A program made the translations under genes and the position numbers. Of a DNA stretch of 64,000 nucleotides, positions 7,331-46,726 are shown piece by piece. How positions within the stretch are numbered: position 1 is the first letter of the stretch; each line of letters begins with the position of its first letter. The stretch is taken from NCBI RefSeq assembly GCF_003018235.1, contig NZ_CP027437.1; one strand, written 5' to 3'. The notes below the pieces were generated by a model. The model had not been told where the DNA came from. It searched no databases and saw only the letters and a list, made by a program, of their open reading frames with translations. This DNA comes from Escherichia coli (GTDB taxonomy: Bacteria > Pseudomonadota > Gammaproteobacteria > Enterobacterales > Enterobacteriaceae).

Positions 7331-8702
<1,372 letters not shown>

Positions 8703-12156: not shown

Positions 12157-13404
12157 ATGGCCATTAAAAAACGCAGTGCAACCGTTGTGCCTGGCGCATC
12201 CGGTGCGGCAGCGGCAGTTAAGAATCCGCAGGCCTCTAAAAGCAGCTTCTGGGGTGAACTCCCGCAGCATGTGATGTCAGGGATTTCACGCATGGTGCCG
12301 ACCTTAATTATGGGCGGTGTGATCCTCGCTTTCAGCCAGCTTATTGCTTATAGCTGGCTTAAAATTCCTGCTGATATCGGCATCATGGATGCTCTTAATA
12401 GCGGGAAATTCTCCGGTTTCGACCTTTCCTTACTGAAATTTGCCTGGCTGTCGCAGTCCTTCGGCGGCGTGTTGTTTGGTTTCGCCATTCCGATGTTTGC
12501 CGCTTTTGTGGCGAACTCTATCGGCGGCAAACTGGCGTTCCCGGCTGGTTTTATTGGCGGCTTGATGTCTACCCAGCCGACGCAACTGCTGAACTTCGAT
12601 CCCAGCACTATGCAATGGGCGACCTCTTCGCCGGTGCCGTCCACCTTCATTGGTGCGCTGATTATTTCTATCGTTGCTGGTTACCTTGTGAAATGGATGA
12701 ACCAGAAAATCCAGTTACCGGATTTCCTGTTAGCGTTCAAAACCACTTTTTTGCTACCGATTCTTTCCGCCATTTTTGTCATGCTGGCGATGTACTACGT
12801 CATTACCCCCTTTGGCGGCTGGATCAACGGCGGTATCCGTACCGTGCTGACTGCCGCAGGTGAGAAGGGCGCGCTAATGTATGCGATGGGGATCGCCGCG
12901 GCGACAGCAATCGACCTTGGTGGCCCGATCAACAAAGCCGCAGGTTTCGTTGCCTTCAGCTTTACCACGGACCACGTATTACCGGTCACCGCACGTTCTA
13001 TCGCTATCGTTATTCCGCCGATTGGTCTGGGTCTGGCGACCATTATTGACCGTCGTTTAACCGGCAAACGCCTGTTCAACGCTCAACTTTATCCGCAGGG
13101 TAAGACCGCGATGTTCCTGGCCTTTATGGGGATTAGTGAGGGTGCGATTCCGTTTGCGCTGGAAAGCCCCATCACCGCCATCCCGTCGTATATGGTCGGC
13201 GCGATTGTCGGCTCAACTGCAGCTGTCTGGCTGGGCGCAGTGCAATGGTTCCCGGAATCCGCTATCTGGGCATGGCCGCTGGTCACTAACCTGGGCGTCT
13301 ATATGGCGGGGATCGCGCTGGGGGCAGTCATTACTGCGCTGATGGTGGTGTTCCTGCGTCTGATGATGTTCCGTAAAGGCAAATTGTTAATCGATAGCCT
13401 GTAA
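12157..13404 (+). CDS. fryC: PTS fructose-like EIIC permease, 415 aa
   Basis: ORF track; polytopic membrane protein; operon context. Confidence 0.8.
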
Positions 13405-13418
13405 GAAGGAAAATCCAG

Positions 13419-14504
13419 ATGACATTACTCGCTTCGCTGCGTGACTGGCTTAAGGCGCAACAACTGGATGCGGTGCTTCTCTCCTCACGGCAGAACAAAC
13501 AGCCGCATCTGGGGATCTCCAGCGGATCAGGCTATGTGGTGATTAGCCGTGAAAGTGCGCACATTCTGGTGGACTCGCGCTATTACGCGGATGTCGAAGC
13601 CCGCACGCAAGGTTACCAGCTACATTTGCTTGACGCGACGCACACGCTTGCAACCATCGTCAATAAAATCATTGCCGATGAGCAGTTGCAAACGCTCGGT
13701 TTTGAAGGCCAGCAGGTAAATTGGGAAACCGCGCACCGCTGGCAGTCTGAACTCAATGCGAAACTGGTAAGCGCCACGCCGGATGTGCTGCGGCAAATCA
13801 AAACGCCAGAGGAGGTGGAGAAAATCCGCCTCGCCTGTGGGATTGCCGATCGCGGAGCGGAGCATATTCGCCGCTTTATTCAGGCGGGGATGAGCGAATG
13901 CGAGATTGCTGCTGAACTGGAGTGGTTTATGCGCCAGCAGGGCGCAGAAAAAGCCTCTTTCGATACCATTGTCGCCAGTGGCTGGCGTGGGGCGCTGCCG
14001 CACGGCAAAGCCAGCGACAAGATTGTTGCAGCGGGCGAGTTTGTCACTCTCGATTTCGGTGCGCTGTATCAGGGTTACTGCTCTGATATGACGCGTACCT
14101 TGCTTGTGAATGGCGAAGGGGTGAGCGCCGAATTTCACCCGCTGTTTGACGTCTATCAGATTGTTTTGCAGGCACAGCTCGCAGCAATCTCCTCGATTCG
14201 CCCCGGCGTGCGCTGCCAGCAGGTTGACGACGCCGCGCGCCGGGTCATTACAGAAGCAGGTTATGGCGACTATTTCGGTCATAACACCGGTCATGCTATC
14301 GGTATTGAAGTCCATGAAGATCCGCGTTTTTCACCGCGGGACACCACGACGCTACAGCCAGGCATGTTACTGACCGTGGAGCCGGGGATTTATTTGCCAG
14401 GGCAAGGGGGCGTGCGCATCGAAGATGTTGTGCTGGTCACCCCGCAAGGCGCAGAAGTGCTCTACGCCATGCCGAAAACAGTGTTGCTCACGGGAGAGGC
14501 ATAA
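13419..14504 (+). CDS. ypdF: Xaa-Pro aminopeptidase (M24 family), 361 aa
   Basis: ORF track; synteny; stop overlaps the ypdE start (TAATG). Confidence 0.8.
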
Positions 14505-15541
14505 TGGATTTATCGTTATTAAAAGCGTTGAGCGAGGCAGATGCGATCGCCTCCTCGGAACAGGAAGTGCGGCAGATCCTGCTGGAAGAAGCGGATCGCC
14601 TGCAAAAAGAAGTGCGATTTGACGGCCTGGGATCGGTGCTGATCCGCCTCAATGAATCGACAGGTCCGAAGGTGATGATCTGTGCGCATATGGATGAAGT
14701 GGGATTTATTGTACGCAGCATCTCCCGCGAAGGGGCGATCGATGTGTTGCCGGTTGGCAATGTACGCATGGCTGCCCGCCAGCTTCAGTCGGTGCGTATC
14801 ACTACCCGTGAAGAGTGCAAAATTCCAGGCCTGCTTGACGGCGACCGGCAGGGGAATGACATCAGCGCCATGCGCGTGGACATTGGTGCGCGCTCGTATG
14901 ACGAAGTGATGCAGGCGGGAATTCGTCCAGGCGATCGCGTCACCTTTGATACAACTTTTCAGGTTCTCCCTCACCAGCGGGTGATGGGGAAAGCCTTTGA
15001 TGATCGCCTCGGTTGCTATCTGCTGGTGACGTTACTACGTGAGCTGCACGACGCCGAACTGCCTGCGGAGGTGTGGCTGGTGGCCAGCTCCAGCGAAGAG
15101 GTGGGATTACGCGGCGGGCAAACCGCTACCCGTGCGGTTTCACCGGACGTTGCGATTGTGCTGGATACCGCCTGCTGGGCGAAAAACTTTGATTATGGCG
15201 CGGCTAACCATCGCCAGATTGGTAACGGCCCGATGCTGGTATTAAGCGACAAGTCGCTGATTGCGCCGCCAAAACTTACCGCGTGGATTGAAACCGTGGC
15301 GGCAGAAATTGGCGTGCCGTTACAGGCAGATATGTTCAGCAACGGCGGCACGGACGGTGGAGCGGTGCATTTAACTGACACCGGCGTACCCACGGTGGTG
15401 ATGGGGCCAGCGACGCGCCACGGACATTGTGCGGCATCGATTGCCGATTGCCGCGACATTTTGCAGATGCAGCAACTTTTATCTGCCCTTATTCAACGTC
15501 TTACCCGTGAGACGGTTGTTCAACTGACGGATTTCAGATGA
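14504..15541 (+). CDS. ypdE: M42-family aminopeptidase, 345 aa
   Basis: ORF track; synteny. Confidence 0.8.
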
Positions 15542-15565
15542 TCTCCTGATTAACCCGGAGCGGTT

Positions 15566-18061
15566 ATGTTAACGATTCAATTTCTCTGTCCTTTGCCTAA
15601 CGGTATTCATGCTCGTCCGGCGTGGGAACTTAAAGAACAGTGCAGCCAGTGGCAAAGCGAAATCACTTTTATTAACCATCGCCAGAACGCAAAGGCCGAT
15701 GCGAAAAGTTCGCTGGCGCTGATTGGTACCGGCACTTTATTTAATGACAGTTGCAGCCTGAACATTAGCGGCAGCGATGAAGAGCAGGCGCGGCGCGTGC
15801 TGGAAGAGTACATCCAGGTGCGCTTTATCGACAGCGACAGCGTCCAGCCAACGCAGGCAGAACTGACGGCGCATCCGCTGCCGCGTTCATTAAGCCGTCT
15901 GAATCCTGATTTATTGTACGGCAATGTGCTGGCAAGCGGCGTCGGCGTGGGTACGCTGATCCTGTTACAGAGCGACAGCCTCGACAGTTACCGGGCGATC
16001 CCCGCCAGTGCGCAAGATTCCACCCGGCTGGAGCACAGCCTGGCAACGCTTGCCGAGCAACTGAACCAGCAGCTGCGTGAGCGTGACGGCGAAAGCAAAA
16101 CTATCCTCAGCGCCCATTTGTCGCTGATTCAGGATGATGAATTTGCAGGCAATATCCGTCGCCTTATGGCAGAACAGCATCAGGGACTGGGGGCGGCGAT
16201 CATCAGCAATATGGAGCAGGTTTGCGCCAAACTATCTGCTTCTGCCAGCGATTATCTGCGCGAGCGGGTCAGCGACATTCGCGATATCAGCGAACAGTTG
16301 CTGCATATCACCTGGCCGGAACTGAAGCCGCGCAACAATCTGGTGCTGGAAAAACCGACTATTCTGGTGGCCGAGGATTTAACCCCAAGCCAGTTTTTGA
16401 GCCTCGATTTAAAAAATCTTGCGGGCATGATTCTGGAGAAAACCGGGCGCACCTCGCATACCCTGATTCTGGCCCGCGCCTCGGCGATCCCGGTACTAAG
16501 TGGCTTGCCGCTGGATGCGATCGCGCGCTATGCCGGGCAACCGGCGGTGCTTGACGCCCAGTGCGGCGTGCTGGCGATTAATCCTGATGACGCGGTGAGC
16601 GGTTATTATCAGGTTGCGCAGACGCTGGCAGATAAACGTCAGCAGCAGCAGGCGCAGGCTGCCGCGCAGCTGGCCTATTCCCGTGATAACAAGCGCATTG
16701 ATATCGCGGCGAATATTGGCACCGCTCTGGAAGCGCCTGGCGCGTTTGCCAACGGCGCGGAAGGCGTCGGGCTGTTCCGTACCGAAATGCTCTATATGGA
16801 TCGCGACAGCGCGCCGGACGAGCAGGAGCAATTTGAAGCCTACCAGCAGGTGCTACTGGCAGCGGGCGACAAGCCGATTATCTTCCGCACAATGGACATC
16901 GGAGGCGATAAAAGCATTCCTTATCTGAATATTCCCCAGGAAGAGAACCCGTTCCTCGGCTATCGTGCGGTACGAATTTACCCGGAATTTGCTGGCCTGT
17001 TCCGCACTCAACTGCGGGCTATTTTGCGCGCCGCCAGTTTCGGCAACGCCCAGCTGATGATCCCGATGGTTCACAGCCTCGATCAGATCTTATGGGTGAA
17101 GGGTGAGATCCAAAAAGCGATCGTTGAGCTTAAACGCGATGGTCTGCGTCATGCAGAGACGATTACGCTGGGTATCATGGTGGAAGTGCCGTCGGTGTGC
17201 TACATCATCGATCACTTCTGCGATGAGGTCGATTTCTTCAGTATCGGTTCTAACGATATGACCCAGTATCTGTATGCGGTTGATCGTAATAACCCGCGCG
17301 TATCGCCGCTGTATAACCCGATTACGCCATCGTTCCTGCGCATGTTGCAGCAGATTGTTACCACTGCGCATCAGCGGGGTAAATGGGTAGGTATTTGCGG
17401 TGAACTGGGCGGTGAAAGCCGTTATCTGCCGCTACTGCTTGGGCTGGGCCTGGACGAGTTAAGTATGAGTAGCCCGCGCATTCCGGCGGTGAAAAGCCAG
17501 CTTCGTCAACTGGATAGCGAGGCGTGTCGGGAACTGGCGCGTCAGGCGTGTGAATGTCGCAGCGCGCAGGAGATTGAAGCGTTACTCACCGCCTTTACGC
17601 CGGAAGAAGACGTTCGCCCGCTGCTGGCGCTGGAGAATATCTTCGTTGATCAGGCCTTTAGCAATAAAGAGCAGGCGATCCAGTTCCTGTGCGGTAACCT
17701 CGGCGTTAACGGGCGCACTGAACATCCGTTCGAGCTGGAAGAGGATGTCTGGCAACGGGAAGAGATTGTTACCACCGGCGTTGGTTTTGGCGTAGCGATC
17801 CCGCACACCAAATCTCAGTGGATCCGTCATTCCAGTATCAGCATTGCCCGGCTGGTGAAACCGGTTGACTGGCAGTCAGAAATGGGCGAAGTCGAACTGG
17901 TGATCATGCTGACGCTGGGTGCTAACGAAGGGATGAACCATGTGAAAGTCTTCTCGCAGCTGGCGTGTAAACTGGTGAATAAAAACTTCCGCCAGTCGTT
18001 GTTTGCCGCGCAAGATGCACAAAGCATCCTGACGCTGCTGGAAACAGAATTAACCTTCTGA
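15566..18061 (+). CDS. fryA: PTS multiphosphoryl transfer protein (HPr-like, EI-like and EIIA-Fru-like domains), 831 aa
   Basis: ORF track; domain-like segments recognisable; synteny. Confidence 0.8.
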   Translation: MLTIQFLCPLPNGIHARPAWELKEQCSQWQSEITFINHRQNAKADAKSSLALIGTGTLFNDSCSLNISGSDEEQARRVLEEYIQVRFIDSDSVQPTQAELTAHPLPRSLSRLNPDLLYGNVLASGVGVGTLILLQSDSLDSYRAIPASAQDSTRLEHSLATLAEQLNQQLRERDGESKTILSAHLSLIQDDEFAGNIRRLMAEQHQGLGAAIISNMEQVCAKLSASASDYLRERVSDIRDISEQLLHITWPELKPRNNLVLEKPTILVAEDLTPSQFLSLDLKNLAGMILEKTGRTSHTLILARASAIPVLSGLPLDAIARYAGQPAVLDAQCGVLAINPDDAVSGYYQVAQTLADKRQQQQAQAAAQLAYSRDNKRIDIAANIGTALEAPGAFANGAEGVGLFRTEMLYMDRDSAPDEQEQFEAYQQVLLAAGDKPIIFRTMDIGGDKSIPYLNIPQEENPFLGYRAVRIYPEFAGLFRTQLRAILRAASFGNAQLMIPMVHSLDQILWVKGEIQKAIVELKRDGLRHAETITLGIMVEVPSVCYIIDHFCDEVDFFSIGSNDMTQYLYAVDRNNPRVSPLYNPITPSFLRMLQQIVTTAHQRGKWVGICGELGGESRYLPLLLGLGLDELSMSSPRIPAVKSQLRQLDSEACRELARQACECRSAQEIEALLTAFTPEEDVRPLLALENIFVDQAFSNKEQAIQFLCGNLGVNGRTEHPFELEEDVWQREEIVTTGVGFGVAIPHTKSQWIRHSSISIARLVKPVDWQSEMGEVELVIMLTLGANEGMNHVKVFSQLACKLVNKNFRQSLFAAQDAQSILTLLETELTF

Positions 18062-18063
18062 CG

Positions 18064-18921
18064 TTAGCCCTGAAAACGGGCGCTGTACTCTCCCGGCGTC
18101 AGACCAAACTGACGCCGGAAAACGCGACAAAAATAGTCGCTATCCGGAAAACCGCAACGCTGTGCCACTTCATGAATTGACAGATGATATTTCTGCAAAA
18201 TCATCCTCGCCTTCGCCATTCGCACCCAACGCACATACTCGATAAAACGCATCGTTCCATGCTGAGCAAACAGTTTTGACAGATGATTGGGCGTGATATT
18301 AAAAAACTGCGCCACGCTCTCGCGGGTGAGCGGCTGGGCATAATTATCCTGAACCCAGTTACAAATGCTGTGATAGAGAAAATCGCTGCGCGGCTGCGAA
18401 TTGCCCGGTGGCATATTCACCACGTTGCGGCAAAGATGCAGCAAACTTAACACCAGTGGCTGAATGATATTCTGCTCCAGCGGTGAACGGCTAAGATGGG
18501 TGAGGGCAGTAAGCATTGCTTCACCTTCGCCGCGTTGCAGGCTGGGAAGCTGGATCTGGCGAGCAGGATGCAACAACGACGTGGTACGGCTATCGTAAAA
18601 CGATAACCCAAGCCAGGTCGGTGCGAACACCAGGCTTAACAGCATCACCGGTTTGTTGTTGATCGGTAAATTAGCCGCGCGCGCTGGAATAAACAGCATT
18701 TCTCCTTCAACCATACGTTGCTGCTTTGCTTCCAGCAGATTGCCGTATTCGCCGCGCAGCACGATATCCAGACGGGGAAAATCAATACATAAACTGCCCA
18801 CCGGTAACGAGGCAGGCTGGCTGGCAAACCAGACGCGCCCCAGTAGTTGCGGGTTAAGCACCAGGCCGCTGAACAGATCGGCGAAAAATTGTTGATCGGC
18901 GGGCAAGCCTGGTGCTTTCAT
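18064..18921 (-). CDS. ypdC: AraC-family transcriptional regulator, 285 aa
   Basis: ORF track; C-terminal AraC-type HTH; synteny. Confidence 0.8.
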   Translation of the reverse strand: MKAPGLPADQQFFADLFSGLVLNPQLLGRVWFASQPASLPVGSLCIDFPRLDIVLRGEYGNLLEAKQQRMVEGEMLFIPARAANLPINNKPVMLLSLVFAPTWLGLSFYDSRTTSLLHPARQIQLPSLQRGEGEAMLTALTHLSRSPLEQNIIQPLVLSLLHLCRNVVNMPPGNSQPRSDFLYHSICNWVQDNYAQPLTRESVAQFFNITPNHLSKLFAQHGTMRFIEYVRWVRMAKARMILQKYHLSIHEVAQRCGFPDSDYFCRVFRRQFGLTPGEYSARFQG

Positions 18922-18933
18922 GAAAGTTCCCGA

Positions 18934-19668
18934 TTAAAGATGCATTAACTGGCGGAATTCTTTAACTTTGCTGCGGCTGACTGGCACTTCAAAATCCAGA
19001 TCTTTCAGCCGCAGAATGTAGGTGTTATTAAACCACGGTTCGATCTCGCGGATTTTGTTCAGATTGACACAAAATGAGCGATGGCAGCGGAAAAAATGCG
19101 ACGGCGGCAGCTTGCTGCAAAACTCGGTAATGTTCATCGGCATTACGTAGGATTCACGCCGCGTATAGACAAAGGTCATTTTCTCATGCGCTTCGGCGTA
19201 ATAGATATCGTTAATTGGCGTGACGATGATTCGCTCATCTTTCACCAGATTAATGGTGTCATTCTCACGCGTTACCGTCGTGGCAGGCGTACTGCTGGTC
19301 TGCTGTTGTTGCCAGGCTGCTTCCAGTTTTTGTAGCATCCCGGTAATGCGTGACTCCTGATACGGTTTGAGAATGTAGTCAAACGCCTCCAGTTCAAACG
19401 CTTCTACCGCATGTTCTTTCCATGCGGTGATAAACACAATAAACGGTTTATGGGCGAACTGGCTGATGTTTTGCGCCAGCAACACACCGTCCAGCGACGG
19501 AATATTGATATCCAGAAAAATGGCGTCGACGCGGTTATGCTGCAAAAACTTCAACACGTCCAGACCGTCGTCAAAGGTGCCGACAATCTCCATCTGGCTG
19601 TGCTCTTTAATTAGCCAGCTCAGTTCCTGTTGTGCCAGGAATTCGTCTTCAACAATGATGACTTTCAC
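18934..19668 (-). CDS. ypdB: LytTR-family response regulator, about 244 aa (GTG start inferred; ORF extends to 19686)
   Basis: ORF track; receiver plus LytTR domains; partner of ypdA. Confidence 0.75.
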   Translation of the reverse strand: MKVIIVEDEFLAQQELSWLIKEHSQMEIVGTFDDGLDVLKFLQHNRVDAIFLDINIPSLDGVLLAQNISQFAHKPFIVFITAWKEHAVEAFELEAFDYILKPYQESRITGMLQKLEAAWQQQQTSSTPATTVTRENDTINLVKDERIIVTPINDIYYAEAHEKMTFVYTRRESYVMPMNITEFCSKLPPSHFFRCHRSFCVNLNKIREIEPWFNNTYILRLKDLDFEVPVSRSKVKEFRQLMHL

Positions 19669-19682
19669 AATATCACTCCGGC

Positions 19683-21380
19683 TCAAAGCAATAACGTAGC
19701 CTGTGAGGCGACTGGGGTGCGTTGGTTAGGAATGTAAAACGCAATTTCCGTCCCCGGTTCCAGGCGGCGGATATGCAGCCCCTCGCCATACAATAACTTC
19801 ACGCGATGATGGACATTCAGCAGGCCAATTTTATTGCCCGGCATTTCGTTCGCTTCGACCCGCTCAATCACCTTTGGATCGATGCCGTGCCCGGTATCTC
19901 GCACCGCAATACGTACCCGATTACCGCACTCTGCAACGCTGATGGTGACAACGCCTTTACCTTTGCAAGGCTGGATACCGTGGACAATGGCGTTTTCCAC
20001 CAACGGCTGGATCAGCAGGCTGGGAATGCAGCAATTCACCTCTTCATCAATATCATAGATAACCGTCAGCTTGTCGCCAAAGCGGGCCTGCTCAATGGCA
20101 ATATAGTCTTTAATTTGATACAGCTCTTTTTTGATATCGATTTGCTCATCGTCTTTTAATTCAATGTTATAGCGCAGATAACGCGACAGATTAAAGATCA
20201 GCTGGCGAGCGGTATCCGGATTCAGACGGATTGACGATGAAATAGCGTTCAAAGCGTTAAACAGGAAATGGGGATTAATTTTGCTTTGCAGGGCGCGAAG
20301 CTCTGCCTTATTTGCCATTTCACGTAGCTGCTCGGCGCGTGAAACCTCCAGTTGCGTGGAGATGATTTGCGACAGACCGACCGCCATTTCCTGTAATGAT
20401 GACGTAATCTGATGCGCGTGGCAGTAGTAAATTTTCAGTGTTCCGGTCACAACGCCTTTCTCCCACAATGGGATCACCAGCATGGAATGAATCTCTGGTG
20501 TGCGGTGGGCTTCATCATTGTTTTTAATGATGATTTTTCCGTAATTCATCGCCTGTCGGGTAGTCGGGCTAATGAAGTCATCGCCATTCTGATAGTTGTG
20601 TTCACCCACGCCAACATAGGCCAGCACATGATCGGTATTGGTAATCGCCACCGCATCGGCATGAATATCATCGCGGATAATTTCACAAACTTTGCGTAAT
20701 GACTCGCTATTGACATGGCGAAACAGCGGCAGCGTTTTGTTGGCGATATCCAGCGCCAGCTTGGCCTGCCGCGCGGCGCTGGCCTCTTTTTCGCCCTCAA
20801 CGCTTTGCACCAGCAGCACAATAAAGCCGATACAGACGCTACCGAGGATCATCGGAATCCCGATTTTAGAGACGATATCGATCCCCAACGCGGTAGTTGG
20901 TGCCCAGACAATCACCAGAATCATGGTCAACGTTTCACATAACATGCCGCCGAGAATACCGACGCGCCAGCGCTGTGCTTTGGGGATTTTCAGGTTGATC
21001 CAGCCCGATATACAACCCGCCAGAATGCTGGTGATAAAGCAGGGGATCGCCGTCACGCCGCCGATATCAATTAAATACCGGTGAATACCCGCAATCACGC
21101 CGGTAATGATGCCTACCCACGGGCCAAACAGAATCCCGCCTGACATCACCGCGATAATACGAACGTTCACTAGCGAGCCTTCTACGGGAACGCCGGACCA
21201 GGTGCTGAACAGGGCGAACAGCGAGAAAATGGCGGTAACAGCGAGCAGCTCTTTTGGGGAGTGCGCCGACTTGTGCAACAGTTCGCGAAACAGGCGGATA
21301 CGGATGAGAAAGAACAGGCAGATAAGCATTAACGCTGCCCGATCGAAGACCGCCAGCAGCATGTTGAATATTTCGTGCAC
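19683..21380 (-). CDS. ypdA: LytS-type sensor histidine kinase, 565 aa
   Basis: ORF track; 5TM-LYT N-terminus, GAF and HATPase regions; synteny. Confidence 0.8.
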
Positions 21381-36708: not shown

Positions 36709-37872
36709 GTGGAACAGATTAATTCAAATAAAAAACATTCTAACAGAAGAAAATACTTTTCTTTATTGGCGGTAGTTTTATTTATTGCGTTTTCAGGTGC
36801 CTATGCCTATTGGTCAATGGAATTAGAAGACATGATTAGTACAGATGACGCCTATGTCACGGGGAATGCAGATCCAATTTCTGCACAAGTTTCAGGCAGC
36901 GTCACTGTCGTTAATCATAAAGATACGAACTACGTTCGACAGGGTGACATTTTAGTCTCACTGGATAAGACTGATGCCACTATCGCACTCAATAAAGCTA
37001 AAAATAATCTGGCCAATATTGTTCGGCAAACGAATAAACTGTACTTACAGGATAAACAATACAGTGCCGAAGTCGCTTCAGCACGTATTCAGTATCAACA
37101 ATCTTTAGAAGATTATAACCGTCGTGTACCTTTAGCGAAGCAGGGGGTTATTTCAAAAGAAACGCTGGAGCATACCAAAGATACGTTAATAAGTAGCAAA
37201 GCGGCATTGAATGCTGCTATTCAGGCTTATAAAGCGAATAAAGCTTTAGTAATGAACACACCATTAAACCGTCAGCCACAAGTCGTTGAAGCTGCGGATG
37301 CAACCAAAGAAGCCTGGTTGGCGCTTAAACGTACGGATATTAAGAGTCCGGTTACCGGCTATATTGCCCAGCGAAGTGTTCAGGTCGGCGAAACAGTGAG
37401 TCCCGGACAATCGTTAATGGCTGTCGTACCGGCACGTCAAATGTGGGTTAATGCTAACTTTAAAGAAACACAACTCACGGATGTACGGATTGGTCAATCG
37501 GTCAATATTATCAGCGATCTTTATGGTGAAAATGTTGTGTTTCATGGTCGGGTGACAGGGATCAATATGGGAACCGGCAATGCGTTCTCCTTATTACCTG
37601 CACAAAATGCGACAGGGAATTGGATCAAAATCGTTCAGCGTGTACCGGTTGAGGTTTCTCTTGATCCAAAAGAACTCATGGAACATCCCTTGCGTATTGG
37701 TTTATCGATGACTGCAACTATTGATACCAGGAACGAAGACATTGCCGATATGCCCGATCTGGCTTCAACCGTGACGTCCATGCCTGCTTATACCAGTAAG
37801 GCTTTAGTTATCGATACCAGTCCGATAGAAAAAGAAATTAGCAACATTATTTCGCATAATGGACAACTTTAA
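36709..37872 (+). CDS. emrK: multidrug efflux membrane fusion protein (EmrA paralog), 387 aa
   Basis: ORF track; HlyD-family; synteny. Confidence 0.85.
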   Translation: MEQINSNKKHSNRRKYFSLLAVVLFIAFSGAYAYWSMELEDMISTDDAYVTGNADPISAQVSGSVTVVNHKDTNYVRQGDILVSLDKTDATIALNKAKNNLANIVRQTNKLYLQDKQYSAEVASARIQYQQSLEDYNRRVPLAKQGVISKETLEHTKDTLISSKAALNAAIQAYKANKALVMNTPLNRQPQVVEAADATKEAWLALKRTDIKSPVTGYIAQRSVQVGETVSPGQSLMAVVPARQMWVNANFKETQLTDVRIGQSVNIISDLYGENVVFHGRVTGINMGTGNAFSLLPAQNATGNWIKIVQRVPVEVSLDPKELMEHPLRIGLSMTATIDTRNEDIADMPDLASTVTSMPAYTSKALVIDTSPIEKEISNIISHNGQL

Positions 37873-39410
37873 TGGCAATCACTAAATCAACTCCGGCACC
37901 ATTAACCGGTGGGACGTTATGGTGCGTTACTATTGCATTGTCATTAGCGACGTTTATGCAAATGTTGGATTCCACTATTTCTAACGTCGCAATACCGACA
38001 ATATCTGGCTTTCTGGGAGCATCAACAGACGAAGGCACCTGGGTTATCACTTCGTTTGGCGTAGCAAATGCCATTGCGATCCCTGTTACCGGCAGGCTGG
38101 CACAAAGAATAGGCGAATTAAGATTATTTTTACTTTCAGTCACTTTTTTTTCGCTGTCTTCCTTAATGTGTAGTTTATCGACCAATCTTGATGTGCTGAT
38201 ATTTTTTAGAGTCGTTCAGGGATTAATGGCGGGGCCGTTAATTCCACTGTCACAGAGTTTATTATTAAGGAATTATCCACCAGAAAAAAGAACATTTGCT
38301 CTGGCATTATGGTCTATGACCGTGATTATCGCGCCGATATGTGGGCCGATATTGGGCGGTTATATTTGTGATAACTTTAGCTGGGGTTGGATATTTTTAA
38401 TCAATGTCCCTATGGGGATTATCGTCCTGACATTATGCTTAACCTTACTTAAAGGAAGAGAAACTGAGACTTCACCGGTCAAAATGAATCTACCAGGACT
38501 GACCCTGTTAGTGCTCGGTGTTGGTGGCTTGCAAATTATGCTCGATAAAGGGCGCGATCTGGATTGGTTCAACTCGAGTACAATAATAATACTAACAGTA
38601 GTGTCAGTTATTTCTCTGATCTCTTTAGTCATTTGGGAGTCGACCTCAGAGAATCCGATTCTTGACCTCAGTTTGTTTAAGTCCCGTAATTTCACCATTG
38701 GTATTGTGAGTATCACATGCGCGTATTTATTTTACTCTGGGGCAATAGTCCTTATGCCGCAATTACTCCAGGAAACGATGGGGTATAATGCGATATGGGC
38801 CGGACTTGCCTATGCGCCCATCGGCATCATGCCGCTATTAATATCACCTTTGATAGGACGTTATGGCAACAAAATTGATATGCGGTTGTTGGTGACATTT
38901 AGTTTTTTAATGTATGCGGTTTGCTATTACTGGCGTTCTGTGACATTTATGCCAACGATTGATTTTACAGGCATCATTTTGCCACAGTTTTTCCAGGGAT
39001 TCGCCGTCGCCTGTTTCTTTTTACCCTTAACAACGATTTCGTTTTCAGGTTTGCCAGATAATAAATTTGCCAATGCCTCGAGTATGAGTAATTTTTTTCG
39101 TACCTTGTCAGGATCAGTTGGTACGTCGTTGACAATGACGCTGTGGGGACGACGCGAATCGTTACACCATAGTCAGTTGACAGCAACCATCGATCAATTT
39201 AACCCCGTGTTTAATTCATCGTCACAAATTATGGATAAATACTATGGTTCGCTTTCAGGGGTTCTTAATGAAATTAATAATGAAATAACTCAGCAGTCAC
39301 TTTCAATTTCTGCAAATGAGATTTTCCGTATGGCGGCTATTGCTTTTATCTTACTTACGGTTTTGGTTTGGTTTGCGAAACCGCCGTTTACAGCGAAAGG
39401 CGTTGGGTGA
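37872..39410 (+). CDS. emrY: MFS multidrug efflux pump (EmrB paralog), 512 aa
   Basis: ORF track; 14-TMS MFS; start overlaps the emrK stop. Confidence 0.85.
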   Translation: MAITKSTPAPLTGGTLWCVTIALSLATFMQMLDSTISNVAIPTISGFLGASTDEGTWVITSFGVANAIAIPVTGRLAQRIGELRLFLLSVTFFSLSSLMCSLSTNLDVLIFFRVVQGLMAGPLIPLSQSLLLRNYPPEKRTFALALWSMTVIIAPICGPILGGYICDNFSWGWIFLINVPMGIIVLTLCLTLLKGRETETSPVKMNLPGLTLLVLGVGGLQIMLDKGRDLDWFNSSTIIILTVVSVISLISLVIWESTSENPILDLSLFKSRNFTIGIVSITCAYLFYSGAIVLMPQLLQETMGYNAIWAGLAYAPIGIMPLLISPLIGRYGNKIDMRLLVTFSFLMYAVCYYWRSVTFMPTIDFTGIILPQFFQGFAVACFFLPLTTISFSGLPDNKFANASSMSNFFRTLSGSVGTSLTMTLWGRRESLHHSQLTATIDQFNPVFNSSSQIMDKYYGSLSGVLNEINNEITQQSLSISANEIFRMAAIAFILLTVLVWFAKPPFTAKGVG

Positions 39411-39515: not shown

Positions 39516-40847
39516 TTATGAACGGCCTTTTGCCAGATATTGCTCCATCTCTTCTTCCGGCACCATTCCACCTCCCGTCGCCCACACCAGATGAGTGGCA
39601 TTACGCAGTTGTTCTGCGCTGAAACCGTGCATCTGTTGGTAACTTACTGATGCGCACACGCGCTGAGGCCCGGCCATACCCGCCAGTGCCGAAGGTTCAA
39701 GACGAATACCTTCTTCCTGCGCCAGCCAGCCAAGCATGTCATACATGGTTTGATCGCTAAGGGTATAGAAGCCATCCAGTAGACGCTCCATTGCCCGCCC
39801 GACAAAGCCTGATGCGCGACCAACTGCAAGGCCATCCGCTGCGGTAAGGTTGTCGATACCAATATCCTGAACAGAAATCTGATCGTGTAATCCTGTATGG
39901 ACGCCTAACAGCATACAAGGGGAGTGCGTTGGTTCGGCAAAAAAGCAGTGAACATGATCGCCAAATGCCAGTTTAAGCCCGAATGCGACGCCACCAGGAC
40001 CACCGCCAACACCACACGGCAGATAGACAAACAGAGGGTTATCAGCATCGACAATACGACCTTGCTCGGCAAATTGCGCTTTAAGACGCTGGCCTGCGAC
40101 GGAATACCCAAGGAACAACGTGCGGGAATTCTCGTCATCAATAAAGAAACAGTTCGGGTCAGACTGCGCTACTTTACGTCCTTCCTCGACTGCAACACCA
40201 TAATCTTGCTCATATTCCACGACCGTAACGCCATGGCTGCGCAGTTTCGCTTTTTTCCATGCCCGGGCATCAGCAGACATATGTACTGTCACCTTAAAGC
40301 CAATGCGGGCGCTCATAATGCCGATTGATAACCCCAGATTTCCGGTTGAGCCCACAGCAATGCTGTATTGACTAAAGAACTGTTTAAACTCCGGAGAAAG
40401 CAGTTTGCTGTAGTCATCTTCAAGCGTCAGCAACCCCGCTTCCAGAGCCAGTTTTTCTGCATGTGCCAGGACTTCATAAATCCCGCCGCGTGCTTTTATG
40501 GAGCCGGAAATGGGCAAATGGCTATCTTTTTTCAGTAGCAGTTGCCTGCTGATCGGTTGTTGATATTCCTTTTCCAGCCGTTTTTGCATAGCCGGAATGG
40601 CAACCAGTTCTGATTCAATAATCCCCCCAGTAGCAGCAGTTTCAGGAAATGCTTTTGCCAGATAGGGTGCAAAACGGGATAAGCGCGCATGGGCGTCCTG
40701 AACATCCTGTTCGGTCAGGCCAACATAAGGTAAACCTTCAGCCAATGAGGTCGTGCCAGGATTAAACCAGGTGGTTTCTTTAAGAGCAACCAGATCCTTT
40801 ACCAACGGATACTGGGCGATGAGCGAGTTCATTTTAGCGTTTTCCAT
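39516..40847 (-). CDS. dsdA: D-serine ammonia-lyase (PLP-dependent), about 442 aa
   Basis: ORF track; [19 protein letters not shown] recalled as DsdA. Confidence 0.9.
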
Positions 40848-40864
40848 AGTACGTCTCTTTGCGC

Positions 40865-41095
40865 TTAGATGATAAATGACAGCAGGAATGTGCCCGCCAG
40901 AGCGACGACTGAAGCGATAAATGTCGCGGTCGTATAGTATTTAAATGTTTCATTGAGCGTAGCGCCGCAATATTGCTTCACCAGCCAGAAAAGCGAGTCC
41001 GTAACGATCGTGCAGCCAATCGCACCTGAACCGATAGCAATCGCAATAATTTCCGGGCTGATGTCGGGATACAGCGGCAGCACAATGATCCATAT
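40865..41095 (-). pseudogene. dsdX: 3' remnant of the D-serine permease gene (about 72 C-terminal codons); the rest was replaced by the csc island
   Basis: minus-strand frame ...IVLPLYPDISPEIIAIAIGSGAIGCTIV...SFII matches the DsdX C-terminus; in-frame stop just upstream; no dsdC present. Confidence 0.7.
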
Positions 41096-41325
41096 TTATA
41101 TTTTCTTCTCCAGGTTGGCGATGCCAGTTGGCATGTTTTACCTACTTGCCTACATGGTTACTCGTTGGCGAGAACAGAGGCGGAATTGGGTACAATTGTC
41201 CGGGAATTATTGTTATTTTTTATTGTATTGCCGTGTCGGGTGATAGGGCGTCGAGAATATCGTTGGATCTCGCCAGTGACGTCTGTTTCTGCTACAGTGC
41301 CCGTTTTACGGCAAACGGCTTGGGT

Positions 41326-42321
41326 ATGGCTTCATTAAAGGATGTCGCACGCCTGGCGGGAGTGTCGATGATGACAGTCTCCCGGGTGATGCATAATGCA
41401 GAATCTGTGCGTCCTGCAACGCGTGACCGCGTATTGCAGGCAATCCAGACCCTGAATTATGTTCCTGATCTTTCCGCCCGTAAGATGCGCGCTCAAGGAC
41501 GTAAGCCGTCGACTCTCGCCGTGCTGGCGCAGGACACTGCTACCACTCCTTTCTCTGTTGATATTCTGCTTGCCATTGAGCAAACCGCCAGCGAGTTCGG
41601 CTGGAATAGTTTTTTAATCAATATTTTTTCTGAAGATGACGCTGCCCGTGCTGCTCGTCAGCTGCTTGCCCACCGTCCGGATGGCATTATCTATACTACA
41701 ATGGGGCTGCGACATATCACGCTGCCTGAGTCTCTGTATGGTGAAAATATTGTATTGGCGAACTGTGTGGCGGATGACCCAGCGTTACCCAGTTATATCC
41801 CTGATGATTACACTGCACAATATGAATCAACACAGCATTTGCTCGCGGCGGGCTATCGTCAACCGTTATGCTTCTGGCTACCGGAAAGTGCGTTGGCAAC
41901 AGGGTATCGTCGGCAGGGATTTGAGCAGGCCTGGCGTGATGCTGGACGAGATCTGGCTGAGGTGAAACAATTTCACATGGCAACAGGTGATGATCACTAC
42001 ACCGATCTCGCAAGTTTACTCAATGCCCACTTCAAATCTGGCAAACCAGATTTTGATGTTCTGATATGTGGTAACGATCGCGCAGCCTTTGTCGCTTATC
42101 AGGTTCTCCTGGCGAAGGGGGTACGTATCCCGCAGGATGTCGCCGTAATGGGCTTTGATAATCTGGTTGGCGTCGGGCATCTGTTTTTACCGCCGCTGAC
42201 CACAATTCAGCTTCCACATGACATTATCGGGCGGGAAGCTGCATTGCATATTATTGAAGATCGTGAAGGGGGAAGAGTGACGCGGATCCCTTGCCCGCTG
42301 TTGATCCGTTGTTCCACCTGA
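41326..42321 (+). CDS. cscR: LacI-family sucrose operon repressor, 331 aa (ORF extends to 41128)
   Basis: ORF track; N-terminal LacI-type HTH MASLKDVARLAGVSMMTVSRV; csc context. Confidence 0.85.
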   Translation: MASLKDVARLAGVSMMTVSRVMHNAESVRPATRDRVLQAIQTLNYVPDLSARKMRAQGRKPSTLAVLAQDTATTPFSVDILLAIEQTASEFGWNSFLINIFSEDDAARAARQLLAHRPDGIIYTTMGLRHITLPESLYGENIVLANCVADDPALPSYIPDDYTAQYESTQHLLAAGYRQPLCFWLPESALATGYRRQGFEQAWRDAGRDLAEVKQFHMATGDDHYTDLASLLNAHFKSGKPDFDVLICGNDRAAFVAYQVLLAKGVRIPQDVAVMGFDNLVGVGHLFLPPLTTIQLPHDIIGREAALHIIEDREGGRVTRIPCPLLIRCST

Positions 42322-42328
42322 TATTATG

Positions 42329-43762
42329 TTAACCCAGTTGCCAGAGTGCTCCATGTTGCAGCACAGCCACTCCGTGGGAGGCATAGAGCGACAGTTCCCG
42401 TTCTTCTGGCTGCGGATATATTCGGCTACTCATCACCGCCTCCCCGTCGTTAATAAATACTTCCACGGATGATGTATCGATAAATATCCTTAGGGCGAGC
42501 ATGTCACCCTGCGGGAGGGGAATACTACGGTAGCCATCTAAATTCTCGTGTGGGTAATACCGCCACAAAACAAGTCGCTCAGATTGGTTATCAATATACA
42601 GCCGCATTCCAGTGCCGAGCTGTAATCCGTAATGTTCGGCATCACTGTTCTTCAGCGCCCACTGCAACTGAATCTCAACTGCTTGCGCGTTTTCCTGCAA
42701 AACATATTTATTGCTGATTGTGCGGGGAGAGATAGATTGATGCTGCTGGCGTAACGACTCAGCTTCGTGTACCGGGCGTTGTAGAAGTTTGCCATTGCTC
42801 TCTGATAGCTCGCGCGCCAGCGTCATGCAGCCTGCCCAGCCTTCACGTTTTGAGGGCATTGGCGATTCCCACATATCCATCCAGCCGATAACAATACGCC
42901 GACCATCCTTCGCTAAAAAGCTTTGTGGTGCATAAAAGTCATGCCCGTTATCAAGTTCAGTAAAATGCCCGGATTGTGCAAAAAGTCGTCCTGGCGACCA
43001 CATTCCGGGTATTACGCCACTTTGAAAGCGATTTCGGTAACTGTATCCCTCGGCATTCATTCCCTGCGGGGAAAACATCAGATAATGCTGATCGCCAAGG
43101 CTGAAAAAGTCCGGACATTCCCACATATAGCTTTCACCCGCATCAGCGTGGGCCAGTACGCGATCGAAGGTCCATTCACGCAATGAACTGCCGCGATAAA
43201 GCAGGATCTGCCCCGTGTTGCCTGGATCTTTCGCCCCGACAACCATCCACCATGTGTCGGCTTCACGCCACACTTTAGGATCGCGGAAGTGCATGATTCC
43301 TTCTGGTGGAGTGAGGATCACACCCTGTTTCTCGAAATGAATACCATCCCGACTGGTAGCCAGACATTGTACTTCGCGAATTGCATCGTCATTACCTGCA
43401 CCATCGAGCCAGACGTGTCCGGTGTAGATAAGTGAGAGGACACCATTGTCATCGACAGCACTACCTGAAAAACACCCGTCTTTGTCATTCTCGTCTCCTG
43501 GCGCTAGCGCAATAGGCTCATGCTGCCAGTGGATCATATCGTCGCTGGTGGCATGTCCCCAGTGCATTGGCCCCCAGTGTTCGCTCATCGGGTGATGTTG
43601 ATAAAACGCGTGATAACGATCGTTAAACCAGATCAGGCCGTTTGGATCGTTCATCCACCCGGCAGGAGGCGCGAGGTGAAAATGGGGATAGAAAGTGTTA
43701 CCTCGGCGCTCGTGAAGTTTTGCTAGTGCGTTTTGCGCCGCATGTAATCGAGATTGCGTCAT
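42329..43762 (-). CDS. cscA: sucrose-6-phosphate hydrolase / invertase (GH32), 477 aa
   Basis: ORF track; GH32 WMNDPNG motif; recalled CscA. Confidence 0.85.
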   Translation of the reverse strand: MTQSRLHAAQNALAKLHERRGNTFYPHFHLAPPAGWMNDPNGLIWFNDRYHAFYQHHPMSEHWGPMHWGHATSDDMIHWQHEPIALAPGDENDKDGCFSGSAVDDNGVLSLIYTGHVWLDGAGNDDAIREVQCLATSRDGIHFEKQGVILTPPEGIMHFRDPKVWREADTWWMVVGAKDPGNTGQILLYRGSSLREWTFDRVLAHADAGESYMWECPDFFSLGDQHYLMFSPQGMNAEGYSYRNRFQSGVIPGMWSPGRLFAQSGHFTELDNGHDFYAPQSFLAKDGRRIVIGWMDMWESPMPSKREGWAGCMTLARELSESNGKLLQRPVHEAESLRQQHQSISPRTISNKYVLQENAQAVEIQLQWALKNSDAEHYGLQLGTGMRLYIDNQSERLVLWRYYPHENLDGYRSIPLPQGDMLALRIFIDTSSVEVFINDGEAVMSSRIYPQPEERELSLYASHGVAVLQHGALWQLG

Positions 43763-43796
43763 TTTTATCATCCTGGTTAAGCAAATTTGGTGAATT

Positions 43797-43808
43797 GTTA
43801 ACGTTAAC
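43797..43808. promoter_or_regulatory. perfect palindrome GTTAACGTTAAC, candidate CscR operator 1 in the cscA–cscK divergent region
   Basis: 12-bp perfect palindrome read directly. Confidence 0.5.
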
Positions 43809-43860
43809 TTTTATAAAAATAAAGTCCCTTACTTTCATAAATGCGATGAATATCACAAAT

Positions 43861-43872
43861 GTTAACGTTAAC
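43861..43872. promoter_or_regulatory. second perfect palindrome GTTAACGTTAAC, candidate CscR operator 2, nested in a larger TCACAAA...TTTGTGA inverted repeat
   Basis: identical 12-mer 64 bp from the first copy. Confidence 0.5.
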
Positions 43873-43977
43873 TATGACGTTTTGTGATCGAATATGCATG
43901 TTTTAGTAAATCCATGACGATTTTGCGAAAAAGAGGTTTATCACTATGCGTAAGTCAGATGAATTTAAGGGAAAAAA

Positions 43978-44901
43978 ATGTCAGCCAAAGTATGGGTTTT
44001 AGGGGATGCGGTCGTAGATCTCTTGCCAGAATCAGACGGGCGGCTACTGCCTTGTCCTGGCGGTGCGCCAGCTAACGTTGCGGTGGGAATCGCCAGATTA
44101 GGCGGAATAAGTGGGTTTATAGGTCGGGTGGGGGATGATCCTTTTGGTGCGTTAATGCAAAGAACGCTGCTAACTGAGGGAGTCGATATCACGTATCTGA
44201 AGCAAGATGAATGGCACCGGACATCCACGGTGCTTGTCGATCTGAACGATCAAGGGGAACGTTCATTTACGTTTATGGTCCGCCCCAGTGCCGATCTTTT
44301 TTTAGAGACGACAGACTTGCCCTGCTGGCGACATGGCGAATGGTTACATCTCTGTTCAATTGCGTTGTCTGCCGAGCCTTCGCGTTCCAGCGCATTTACT
44401 GCGATGACGGCGATCCGGCATGCCGGAGGTTTTGTCAGCTTCGATCCCAATATTCGTGAAGATCTATGGCAAGACGAGCATTTGCTCCGCTTGTGTTTGC
44501 GGCAGGCGCTACAACTGGCGGATGTCGTCAAGCTCTCGGAAGAAGAATGGCGACTTATCAGTGGAAAAACACAGAACGATCGGGATATATGCGCCCTGGC
44601 AAAAGAGTATGAGATCGCCATGCTGTTGGTGACTAAAGGTGCAGAAGGGGTGGTGGTCTGTTATCGAGGACAAGTCCACCATTTTGCTGGAATGTCTGTG
44701 AATTGTGTCGATAGCACTGGGGCGGGAGATGCGTTCGTTGCCGGGTTACTCACAGGTCTGTCCTCTACGGGATTATCTACAGATGAGAGAGAAATGCGAC
44801 GAATTATCGATCTCGCTCAACGTTGCGGAGCGCTTGCAGTAACAGCGAAAGGGGCAATGACAGCGCTGCCATGTCGACAAGAACTGGAAAGTGAGAAGTA
44901 A
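43978..44901 (+). CDS. cscK: fructokinase (PfkB family), 307 aa
   Basis: ORF track; ribokinase/PfkB-like; csc context. Confidence 0.85.
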   Translation: MSAKVWVLGDAVVDLLPESDGRLLPCPGGAPANVAVGIARLGGISGFIGRVGDDPFGALMQRTLLTEGVDITYLKQDEWHRTSTVLVDLNDQGERSFTFMVRPSADLFLETTDLPCWRHGEWLHLCSIALSAEPSRSSAFTAMTAIRHAGGFVSFDPNIREDLWQDEHLLRLCLRQALQLADVVKLSEEEWRLISGKTQNDRDICALAKEYEIAMLLVTKGAEGVVVCYRGQVHHFAGMSVNCVDSTGAGDAFVAGLLTGLSSTGLSTDEREMRRIIDLAQRCGALAVTAKGAMTALPCRQELESEK

Positions 44902-44962
44902 ACGGCGAGGCCGCTCTTATCTCTAAATAGGACATGAATTTTTTAACGACAGGCAGGTAATT

Positions 44963-46210
44963 ATGGCACTGAATATTCCATTCAGAAATGCATACTATCG
45001 TTTTGCATCCAGTTACTCATTTCTCTTTTTTATTTCCTGGTCGCTGTGGTGGTCGTTATACGCTATTTGGCTGAAAGGACATCTAGGATTAACAGGGACG
45101 GAATTAGGTACACTTTATTCGGTCAACCAGTTTACCAGCATTCTATTTATGATGTTCTACGGCATCGTTCAGGATAAACTCGGTCTGAAGAAACCGCTCA
45201 TCTGGTGTATGAGTTTCATTCTGGTCTTGACCGGACCGTTTATGATTTACGTTTATGAACCGTTACTGCAAAGCAATTTTTCTGTAGGTCTAATTCTGGG
45301 GGCGCTCTTTTTTGGCCTGGGGTATCTGGCGGGATGTGGTTTGCTTGACAGCTTCACTGAAAAAATGGCGCGAAATTTTCATTTCGAATATGGAACAGCG
45401 CGCGCCTGGGGATCTTTTGGCTATGCTATTGGCGCGTTCTTTGCCGGCATATTTTTTAGTATCAGTCCCCATATCAACTTCTGGTTGGTCTCGCTATTTG
45501 GCGCTGTATTTATGATGATCAACATGCGTTTTAAAGATAAGGGTCACCAGTGTGTAGCGGTGGATGCAGGAGGGGTAAAAAAAGAGGATTTTATCGCAGT
45601 TTTCAAGGATCGAAACTTCTGGGTTTTCGTCATATTTATTGTGGGGACGTGGTCTTTCTATAACATTTTTGATCAACAACTCTTTCCTGTCTTTTATGCA
45701 GGTTTATTCGAATCACACGATGTAGGAACGCGCCTGTATGGTTATCTCAACTCATTCCAGGTGGTACTCGAAGCGCTGTGCATGGCGATTATTCCTTTCT
45801 TTGTGAATCGGGTAGGGCCAAAAAATGCATTACTTATCGGTGTTGTGATTATGGCGTTGCGTATCCTTTCCTGCGCGCTGTTCGTTAACCCCTGGATTAT
45901 TTCATTAGTGAAGCTGTTACATGCCATTGAGGTTCCACTTTGTGTCATATCCGTCTTCAAATACAGCGTGGCAAACTTTGATAAACGCCTGTCGTCGACG
46001 ATCTTTCTGATTGGTTTTCAAATTGCCAGTTCGCTTGGGATTGTGCTGCTTTCAACGCCGACTGGGATACTCTTTGACCACGCAGGCTACCAGACAGTTT
46101 TCTTCGCAATTTCGGGTATTGTCTGCCTGATGTTGCTATTTGGCATTTTCTTCCTGAGTAAAAAACGCGAGCAAATAGTTATGGAAACGCCTGTACCTTC
46201 AGCAATATAG
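44963..46210 (+). CDS. cscB: sucrose:H+ symporter (LacY-like MFS), 415 aa
   Basis: ORF track; oligosaccharide:H+ symporter family; csc context. Confidence 0.85.
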   Translation: MALNIPFRNAYYRFASSYSFLFFISWSLWWSLYAIWLKGHLGLTGTELGTLYSVNQFTSILFMMFYGIVQDKLGLKKPLIWCMSFILVLTGPFMIYVYEPLLQSNFSVGLILGALFFGLGYLAGCGLLDSFTEKMARNFHFEYGTARAWGSFGYAIGAFFAGIFFSISPHINFWLVSLFGAVFMMINMRFKDKGHQCVAVDAGGVKKEDFIAVFKDRNFWVFVIFIVGTWSFYNIFDQQLFPVFYAGLFESHDVGTRLYGYLNSFQVVLEALCMAIIPFFVNRVGPKNALLIGVVIMALRILSCALFVNPWIISLVKLLHAIEVPLCVISVFKYSVANFDKRLSSTIFLIGFQIASSLGIVLLSTPTGILFDHAGYQTVFFAISGIVCLMLLFGIFFLSKKREQIVMETPVPSAI

Positions 46211-46289
46211 ACGTAAACTTTTTCCGGTTGTTGTCGATATCTCCATATCCCTCAACCGGAAAATAATAATACAAAAATGCTTAGCCCAA

Positions 46290-46520
46290 CTAATAATCAC
46301 CTAATCCAAACGCCTCATTCATGTTCTGGTACAGTCGCTCAAATGTACTCCGGATACGCGGTTCGCTGATTTCCAGGACATTGTCGTCATTCAGCGACCT
46401 GTCCCGAGTATCACGGGCCTGCGAATTCATCAAGGAATGCATTGCAGAGTGAAGTATCGAGTCACGCCATATTTCGCTATCAGGATTCTGTATGATGGTT
46501 ACATCGCCCGGCCCAGGGCT
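46290..46520 (-). other. start-less ORF remnant of about 60 codons (…IWRDSILHSAMHSLMNSQARDTRDRSLNDDNVLEISEPRIRSTFERLYQNMNEAFGLGDY*) in the cscB–argW spacer
   Basis: manual translation; open frame bounded upstream by a stop, with no plausible start or RBS; identity unknown. Confidence 0.3.
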
Positions 46521-46651
46521 GTTTAGTCATCAGCGCTTTCTGACAGTGCTGAGATTTCAACCTGTTGCAGTAAAAATGAGTAAATATAGGGCAAGTGTGC
46601 TGCCAAACCCATCTTTTACGGGGTGAAGGTAGATATTGTTAGAAGGGTATC

Positions 46652-46726
46652 TGGTGTCCCCTGCAGGAATCGAACCTGCAATTAGCCCTTAGGAGGGGCT
46701 CGTTATATCCATTTAACTAAGAGGAC
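46652..46726 (-). tRNA. argW: tRNA-Arg(CCU), 75 nt
   Basis: reverse complement GTCCTCTTAGTTAAATGGATATAACGAGCCCCTCCTAAGGGCTAATTGCAGGTTCGATTCCTGCAGGGGACACCA. Confidence 0.9.

Follow-up and report, generated by a model that had tools for sequence, protein, structure and literature searches.

The 64,000-nt stretch of Escherichia coli DNA analysed here (the window) carries a dsdA gene lying between the emrY gene and a sucrose gene island that is bounded on its far side by the tRNA gene argW. Before dsdA, the order is evgS and evgA on the minus strand, then emrK and emrY on the plus strand. emrY (37872..39410, plus strand) forms the conserved flank downstream of dsdA; it is collinear with K-12 emrY and is annotated under that name in matching genomes. 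It is followed by dsdA (39516..40847, minus strand), the native dsdX-dsdA spacer containing the dsdA ribosome-binding region (40848..40864, minus strand), which is the same as K-12 in alignments, and a remnant of dsdX (40865..41082, minus strand). The sucrose island, with the gene order cscR-cscA-cscK-cscB, spans 5.6 kb (41083-46651) between the dsdX remnant and argW.

The dsdA gene is an intact 443-aa ORF, with family, structure and K-12 matches to D-serine ammonia-lyase. Its product is 98.6% identical to K-12 DsdA across all 442 residues, differing by six substitutions (G101R, D143E, A226V, Q261E, T417A and N435E) and by one additional C-terminal Ser. The E. coli D-serine dehydratase structure (PDB 3SS7, residues 1-442) aligns to residues 1-442 with the same number of substitutions (E = 9e-297). 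The TIGR02035 model scores 807.8 bits (cutoff 368.25) over profile positions 1-431 of 431, and NF002823 scores 773.4 bits (cutoff 246). The PLP-binding lysine, K118, is found inside an SGSIKARGG motif. By the equivalog models, and by the uninterrupted ORF retaining K118, DsdA can be assigned to the fold-type II PLP enzymes (EC 4.3.1.18), and the orphan gene apparently encodes an active enzyme. The original prediction that dsdA is full length is thus borne out, with end-to-end alignment to 3SS7, a TIGR02035 score above cutoff and K118 kept. Exactly the same protein is recorded in 48 blocks of public assemblies. The G101R change, 17 residues ahead of the PLP lysine, is private to the window lineage among the 18 distinct alleles sampled. 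The window allele, at 443 aa and with G101R, is 15-19 nt apart from the sampled O157:H7 dsdA alleles.

Only the 3′ end of dsdX is present. A 72-codon minus-strand ORF at 40865-41083 corresponds to the DsdX C-terminus; by tblastn, only residues 374-445 of K-12 DsdX align (window 41083-40868), and only profile positions 374-445 of 445 are matched in the NF007395 DsdX model. In nucleotide alignments, K-12 homology extends as far as window 41082, equivalent to nt 1121 of K-12 dsdX (1338 nt in all), and the ATG codon of Met374 is GTG in the window. By nucleotide alignment, tblastn and profile, the remnant therefore consists of the final 71 codons plus the stop (K-12 dsdX nt 1121-1338). Ahead of it is an in-frame TAA (41096-41098, minus strand), situated within DNA that is not dsdX, as are the 13 nt at 41083-41095 that had been counted with the dsdA-dsdX interval. 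The original prediction of about 72 C-terminal dsdX codons behind an in-frame stop was accordingly right about the stub and the TAA, but the coding remnant is 71 codons plus stop, and the TAA does not belong to dsdX. Automated annotation (PGAP) labels the equivalent 219 nt as a partial pseudogene ('DsdX, incomplete, missing N-terminus'). A partial DsdX pseudogene is annotated in 12/12 csc-type records fetched, 11 of which have the canonical 219-nt stub, while O157:H7 TR01 has a 264-nt variant.

The activator gene dsdC had also been predicted to be missing, and this holds within the 64-kb window: a tblastn search of the whole window with K-12 DsdC returned a best E of 0.5, and blastn with K-12 dsdC returned no matches. 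The K-12 dsdC-dsdX intergenic promoter region likewise has no blastn matches in the window. Of the components of an intact dsdCXA operon, the locus is without dsdC, without a full-length dsdX (445 codons) and without the intergenic promoter. Neither the gene for the activator nor the DsdC-dependent promoter region is physically present; instead, cscA lies upstream of dsdA, with cscR on the opposite strand between them. Since both dsdC and the dsdX promoter are absent, induction by D-serine would be impossible at this locus. As the DsdC-dependent promoter lies in the deleted intergenic region, DsdC supplied in trans could not induce the window dsdA via the dsdX promoter either.

From the junction at 41082/41083, where K-12 homology ends, non-coding DNA of the csc side (41083..41325) leads to cscR (41326..42321, plus strand), an open 331-aa frame for the LacI-family repressor of the csc genes, identified by its family match and annotated 'sucrose operon repressor CscR' in H9. 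cscA (42329..43762, minus strand) is open over 477 aa and encodes a sucrose hydrolase/invertase (TIGR01322, 478 bits, cutoff 356); it is convergent with cscR and lies on the same strand as dsdA. A divergent cscA / cscKB control region (43763..43977) was found by repeat search to contain two copies of the palindrome TTAACGTTAAC (43794-43812 and 43857-43875), which are putative CscR operators. Beyond it are the open genes cscK (43978..44901, plus strand), encoding a fructokinase of 307 aa (NF006957, 506.7 bits, cutoff 450), and cscB (44963..46210, plus strand), encoding a sucrose:H+ symporter of 415 aa (TIGR00882, 590 bits). A short ORF remnant with a DUF4942 domain (46290..46472, minus strand), taken from gene calls mapped from near-identical contigs and annotated in further csc-type loci, separates cscB from argW. 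The latter, a tRNA-Arg(CCU) gene (46652..46726, minus strand), is an integration/recombination hotspot that bounds the island, and K-12 homology restarts here.

Around the locus, K-12 matches the window in two blocks only, one from the dsdX 3′ end through evgS (window 41082-34048, K-12 locus positions 12968-20001) and the other covering yfdC-argW (window 47035-46652). Between them (41083-46651) there are no K-12 matches, and in K-12 this interval is taken up by prophage CPS-53, dsdC and dsdX up to nt 1120. The loss of dsdC and most of dsdX is caused by their replacement with the cscRAKB island, a cause absent from the original prediction. The dsdX junction was also searched for direct repeats of the 3′ end of argW that might be att-like; only short ones, at chance level, were found.

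Transcription signals were scanned for between 39300 and 44000. A consensus scan for sigma-70-like sites gave 0 on either strand, against 5.7 expected by chance, and so neither located the published internal dsdA promoter nor lent support to it. Five terminator-like sites were found, against a chance expectation of 4.9, none of them between cscA and the dsdX stub on their shared strand.

Compared with the dsdCXA loci of K-12 and the uropathogenic strain CFT073, the window retains dsdA, the spacer and 218 nt at the 3′ end of dsdX, all in the same order as in K-12, to which they are about 97-99% identical, together with the same downstream neighbours, emrYK and evgAS. It differs from them by the lack of dsdC, the divergent dsdC/dsdX promoter region and dsdX codons 1-373. 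The loci of O157:H7 EDL933, E. coli W and EC3132 all have the window's order of emrY, dsdA, dsdX stub, cscR, cscA, cscK, cscB and argW. In O157:H7 strains PV15-279 and Z892, and in many further genomes, a 69-nt stretch over the junction is 100% identical to the window, and the 219-nt stub of csc-type strains is the same. At the locus itself, the window departs from these strains in its alleles only.

This arrangement is not unusual, being present in about 49% of complete E. coli genomes. When 69 nt spanning the junction (41068-41136) were used as a probe, 2663 of 5426 complete genomes matched, including O157:H7, 2124 of them at 99% identity or more, and a 3.1-kb probe for emrY-dsdA-dsdX′-cscR-cscA was found at 80% coverage or more in 2660/5426. 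An uninterrupted dsdX over the breakpoint occurs in 2764/5426 complete genomes, and dsdC plus the 5′ part of dsdX in 2771/5426 (at 2969 places). The csc and dsd states therefore split the species almost exactly.

Apart from O157:H7 TR01 (NZ_CP033605.1), no breakpoints differing between lineages were seen. TR01 has a hybrid junction with 39-45 extra nt of dsdX, in which an equal length of genuine dsdX stands in for 39 nt of csc-side sequence at the canonical junction, giving a 264-nt stub (7995-8258 of its locus). The idea of a second junction type was rejected, as a specific probe for it matched 1/5426 genomes and the window junction is the canonical one; the TR01 junction is either a private variant, perhaps a gene conversion, or an assembly quirk. 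The TR01 cscB is an annotated pseudogene with an internal stop, whereas the window copy is intact. Two genomes show other ways to a disabled D-serine locus. O145 strain RM8995-C1 has a frameshifted dsdX adjoining dsdC, with dsdA intact, and in RM14723, again with dsdA intact, a deletion has joined a shortened dsdC to a dsdX that lacks its N-terminal part, immediately next to argW.

The dsdA genes of 13 csc-type and 8 dsd-type loci were compared, a small sample with 11 distinct csc-type alleles. The ORF is full length in 13/13 csc-type genomes. Comparing pairs of genomes within each type gave a pN/pS of 0.064 for csc-type and 0.068 for dsd-type, and the private variants (synonymous:non-synonymous) number 20:11 and 25:17, respectively (Fisher p = 0.81). 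Under neutrality 24% of variants would be synonymous, and both types lie well away from that (p about 2e-6). No relaxed constraint on the orphan dsdA is visible, which is weak evidence, as recombination between the locus states confounds the comparison: where dsdA alleles have recombined between csc and dsd loci, much of the polymorphism may have been filtered during the gene's time in a working operon. The absence of decay in this sample fits less well with a completely useless gene.

The dsdA alleles track strain background and not locus state. For example, the csc-type HB-Coli0 and the dsd-type K-12 are only 3 nt apart in dsdA, while the csc-type MS10860 and the window are 72 nt apart in dsdA but differ at 3/235 nt in the stub and 13/996 nt in cscR. 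Among csc-type genomes, the stub differs by at most 3.0% and cscR by at most 1.3%, whereas dsdA alleles differ by up to 5.5%. The pattern is consistent with a junction of single origin that homologous recombination, with crossovers within dsdA or close to it, would have spread.

Taken together, the locus is very probably (probability about 0.92) the canonical replacement of dsdCX by csc genes at the argW hotspot of E. coli. The csc island occupies the place of CPS-53, dsdC, the control region between dsdC and dsdX, and dsdX as far as nt 1120, leaving the last 218 nt of dsdX and a complete dsdA. To judge from the genomes sampled, the junction probably arose once and then moved among E. coli lineages by homologous recombination of its flanks. 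With DsdC and the DsdC-dependent dsdX promoter gone, transcription of dsdA is expected to be weak and constitutive, coming from a promoter internal to the stub or from leakage. Cells lacking inducible deamination would not grow on D-serine, and since dsdA would be only weakly transcribed, D-serine entering by other transporters, such as CycA, would not be degraded and would build up. What would be gained in return is slow, CscR-repressed use of sucrose. The orphan dsdA would also be open to re-activation by cscR deletions, through read-through from the cscA promoter.

Replacement of dsdCX by cscRAKB and its consequences have already been published (Connolly 2015; O'Boyle 2020; and Jahreis 2002 and Moritz & Welch 2006, as cited in passages of PMC4366372 and PMC3032704), namely lost D-serine catabolism, medium-dependent D-serine toxicity and a silent dsdA open to re-activation. 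Most strains without dsdCX have cscBKAR instead, and argW is a recombination hotspot (PMC4366372). In E. coli W, D-serine use was lost by the same insertion (PMC3032704), and in a 2026 strain panel with configurations typed by PCR, D-serine use was strictly tied to the dsd configuration (PMC13054288). The use of sucrose (csc) and of D-serine is mutually exclusive in most strains (PMC11251922). The window strain is thus predicted to be sucrose-positive (slow), D-serine non-utilising and D-serine-sensitive in minimal medium; the slow sucrose-positive, D-serine non-utilising phenotype has been published for strains with the same locus (PMC3032704, PMC13054288, PMC7486766).

The original prediction of poor D-serine catabolism and tolerance can be divided on this basis. 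Loss of catabolism is well supported by what is published for the same arrangement, while poor tolerance depends on the medium (PMC4699771, PMC7486766). EHEC with a csc-type locus grew normally at 1 mM D-serine in MEM-HEPES (PMC4699771), while D-serine impaired EHEC growth in O'Boyle 2020, in which M9 and MEM-HEPES were the media used to score mutants for tolerance (PMC7486766).

A possible though unlikely alternative is that purifying selection keeps the orphan dsdA as a working or latent gene. It would then be expressed without DsdC, either at a low level from the promoter internal to the stub or by cscA-promoter read-through once sucrose lifts CscR repression, so that csc-type strains would keep some low-level or sucrose-linked detoxification of D-serine. 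The 13/13 full-length dsdA genes, a pN/pS like that of dsd-type genomes and the non-neutral private variants all agree with such a role, but the test for constraint is confounded by csc/dsd recombination and includes only 11 distinct csc-type alleles. Read-through is made plausible by cscA and dsdA being on one strand, with no terminator-like site between them on that strand in the scan, and by the finding that EHEC dsdA transcription follows the cscA promoter (cscAp) after cscR is deleted (PMC7486766). Spontaneous cscR deletions in that work raised dsdA 33-fold and brought back D-serine consumption by cscAp read-through, showing the orphan dsdA to be functional though silent (O'Boyle 2020, PMC7486766). 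The mutants, LCV2 and LCV10B, started from the same layout as the window, with cscA upstream of a co-directional dsdA and cscR between (O'Boyle 2020, PMC7486766). They carry a re-activated dsdA, whereas the window keeps cscR and cscA complete, which is the un-activated wild-type state. In wild-type EHEC, dsdA reporter fusions with the native upstream region gave low fluorescence, that is, low basal dsdA expression (PMC7486766), which counts against a working gene. A weak internal dsdA promoter has been placed inside the dsdX remnant, about 115 bp upstream of the dsdA start (O'Boyle 2020, PMC7486766), and 'silent' is a relative term, given the low basal dsdA in these reporters and the tolerance of EHEC for 1 mM D-serine in a rich-type medium (PMC4699771). 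Wild-type EHEC also accumulates D-serine and grows on it only when functional dsdA is supplied (PMC4699771), and induction of dsdA by sucrose was not found in the literature examined on csc-type strains.

It is much less probable that a second, complete dsdCXA elsewhere in the genome, as in many K1-type strains, makes this strain D-serine-positive. Genomes with two copies do exist: the 2969 places with dsdC and the dsdX 5′ part fall in 2771 genomes, and dsdCXA without a following emrY is found in FDAARGOS_1257 and MS 69-1. At least one genome must carry both the junction and an uninterrupted dsdX, as the two counts (2663 + 2764 = 5427) exceed 5426, and 4 of the best 25 junction matches contain part of the 3.1-kb query at a further place. 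However, an estimated 1-3% or so of csc-type genomes also have an uninterrupted dsdX (a figure derived from the counts and not a direct tally), there is no sign of a second copy inside the 64-kb window, and csc and D-serine use are described as mutually exclusive in most strains (PMC11251922). An error of assembly or sequencing, or a recent deletion private to this isolate, is scarcely credible as the source of the truncation, given the identical breakpoint in 2663 complete genomes and three independent assemblies (drafts GCA_012128275.1 and GCA_052706125.1, and run SRR21507360) that match the window at 99.96-99.995% identity over the 21 kb spanning the junction.

The backbone of the window has no close relative among the 5426 complete E. 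coli genomes, the best identity over positions 1-24000 being 97.3%. Control segments of 3.1 kb gave best identities of 98.1% (13000-16100) and 99.0% (53000-56100), compared with 99.5% at the dsdA-csc junction, so that the csc segment is less diverse than the backbone. Identity per kb to a single genome is mosaic, ranging from 95.7% to 100%. The idea that the csc-dsdA segment recently introgressed into a divergent backbone was considered and rejected, as the identity differences are too small and the per-kb pattern is mosaic.

Three other features were seen in the comparison with isolate 362. An insertion sequence of the IS621 family (IS110-like, RNA-guided) lies between mntH and ypeC (7387-8665; ORF 7493-8473, minus strand); it is missing in isolate 362, but at least 1587 complete E. 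coli genomes have it at this site, with a best identity of only 96.4%. A hypothetical 426-aa ORF between mlaA and fadL (48965-50245, minus strand) has no NCBIfam family matches and falls in the most divergent kb of the window (87% identity to isolate 362 vs 96-100% elsewhere). The distal fimbrial (yfc-like) operon at 61700-64000 has no megablast matches to its isolate 362 counterpart, which suggests variable fimbrial genes.

Metabolic trade-offs linked to niche have a textbook case in the csc/dsd switch at argW. D-serine is abundant in urine, and dsdCXA is enriched in uropathogens, while the csc replacement is enriched in LEE-carrying intestinal pathotypes. The trade-off relevant to the urinary niche that had been proposed for this locus agrees with the sequence and with published experiments on the same arrangement (PMC4366372, PMC7486766, PMC3032704, PMC13054288). 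The locus in the window represents the standard csc/dsd polymorphism of about half of E. coli, which is already known, and is real but ordinary. The intactness of the orphan dsdA over thousands of genomes is a mildly interesting point. Were the gene selectively kept after all, dsdA would be a reserve for D-serine catabolism that is one deletion away and not decaying, and this would explain why it is intact in about half of the species.
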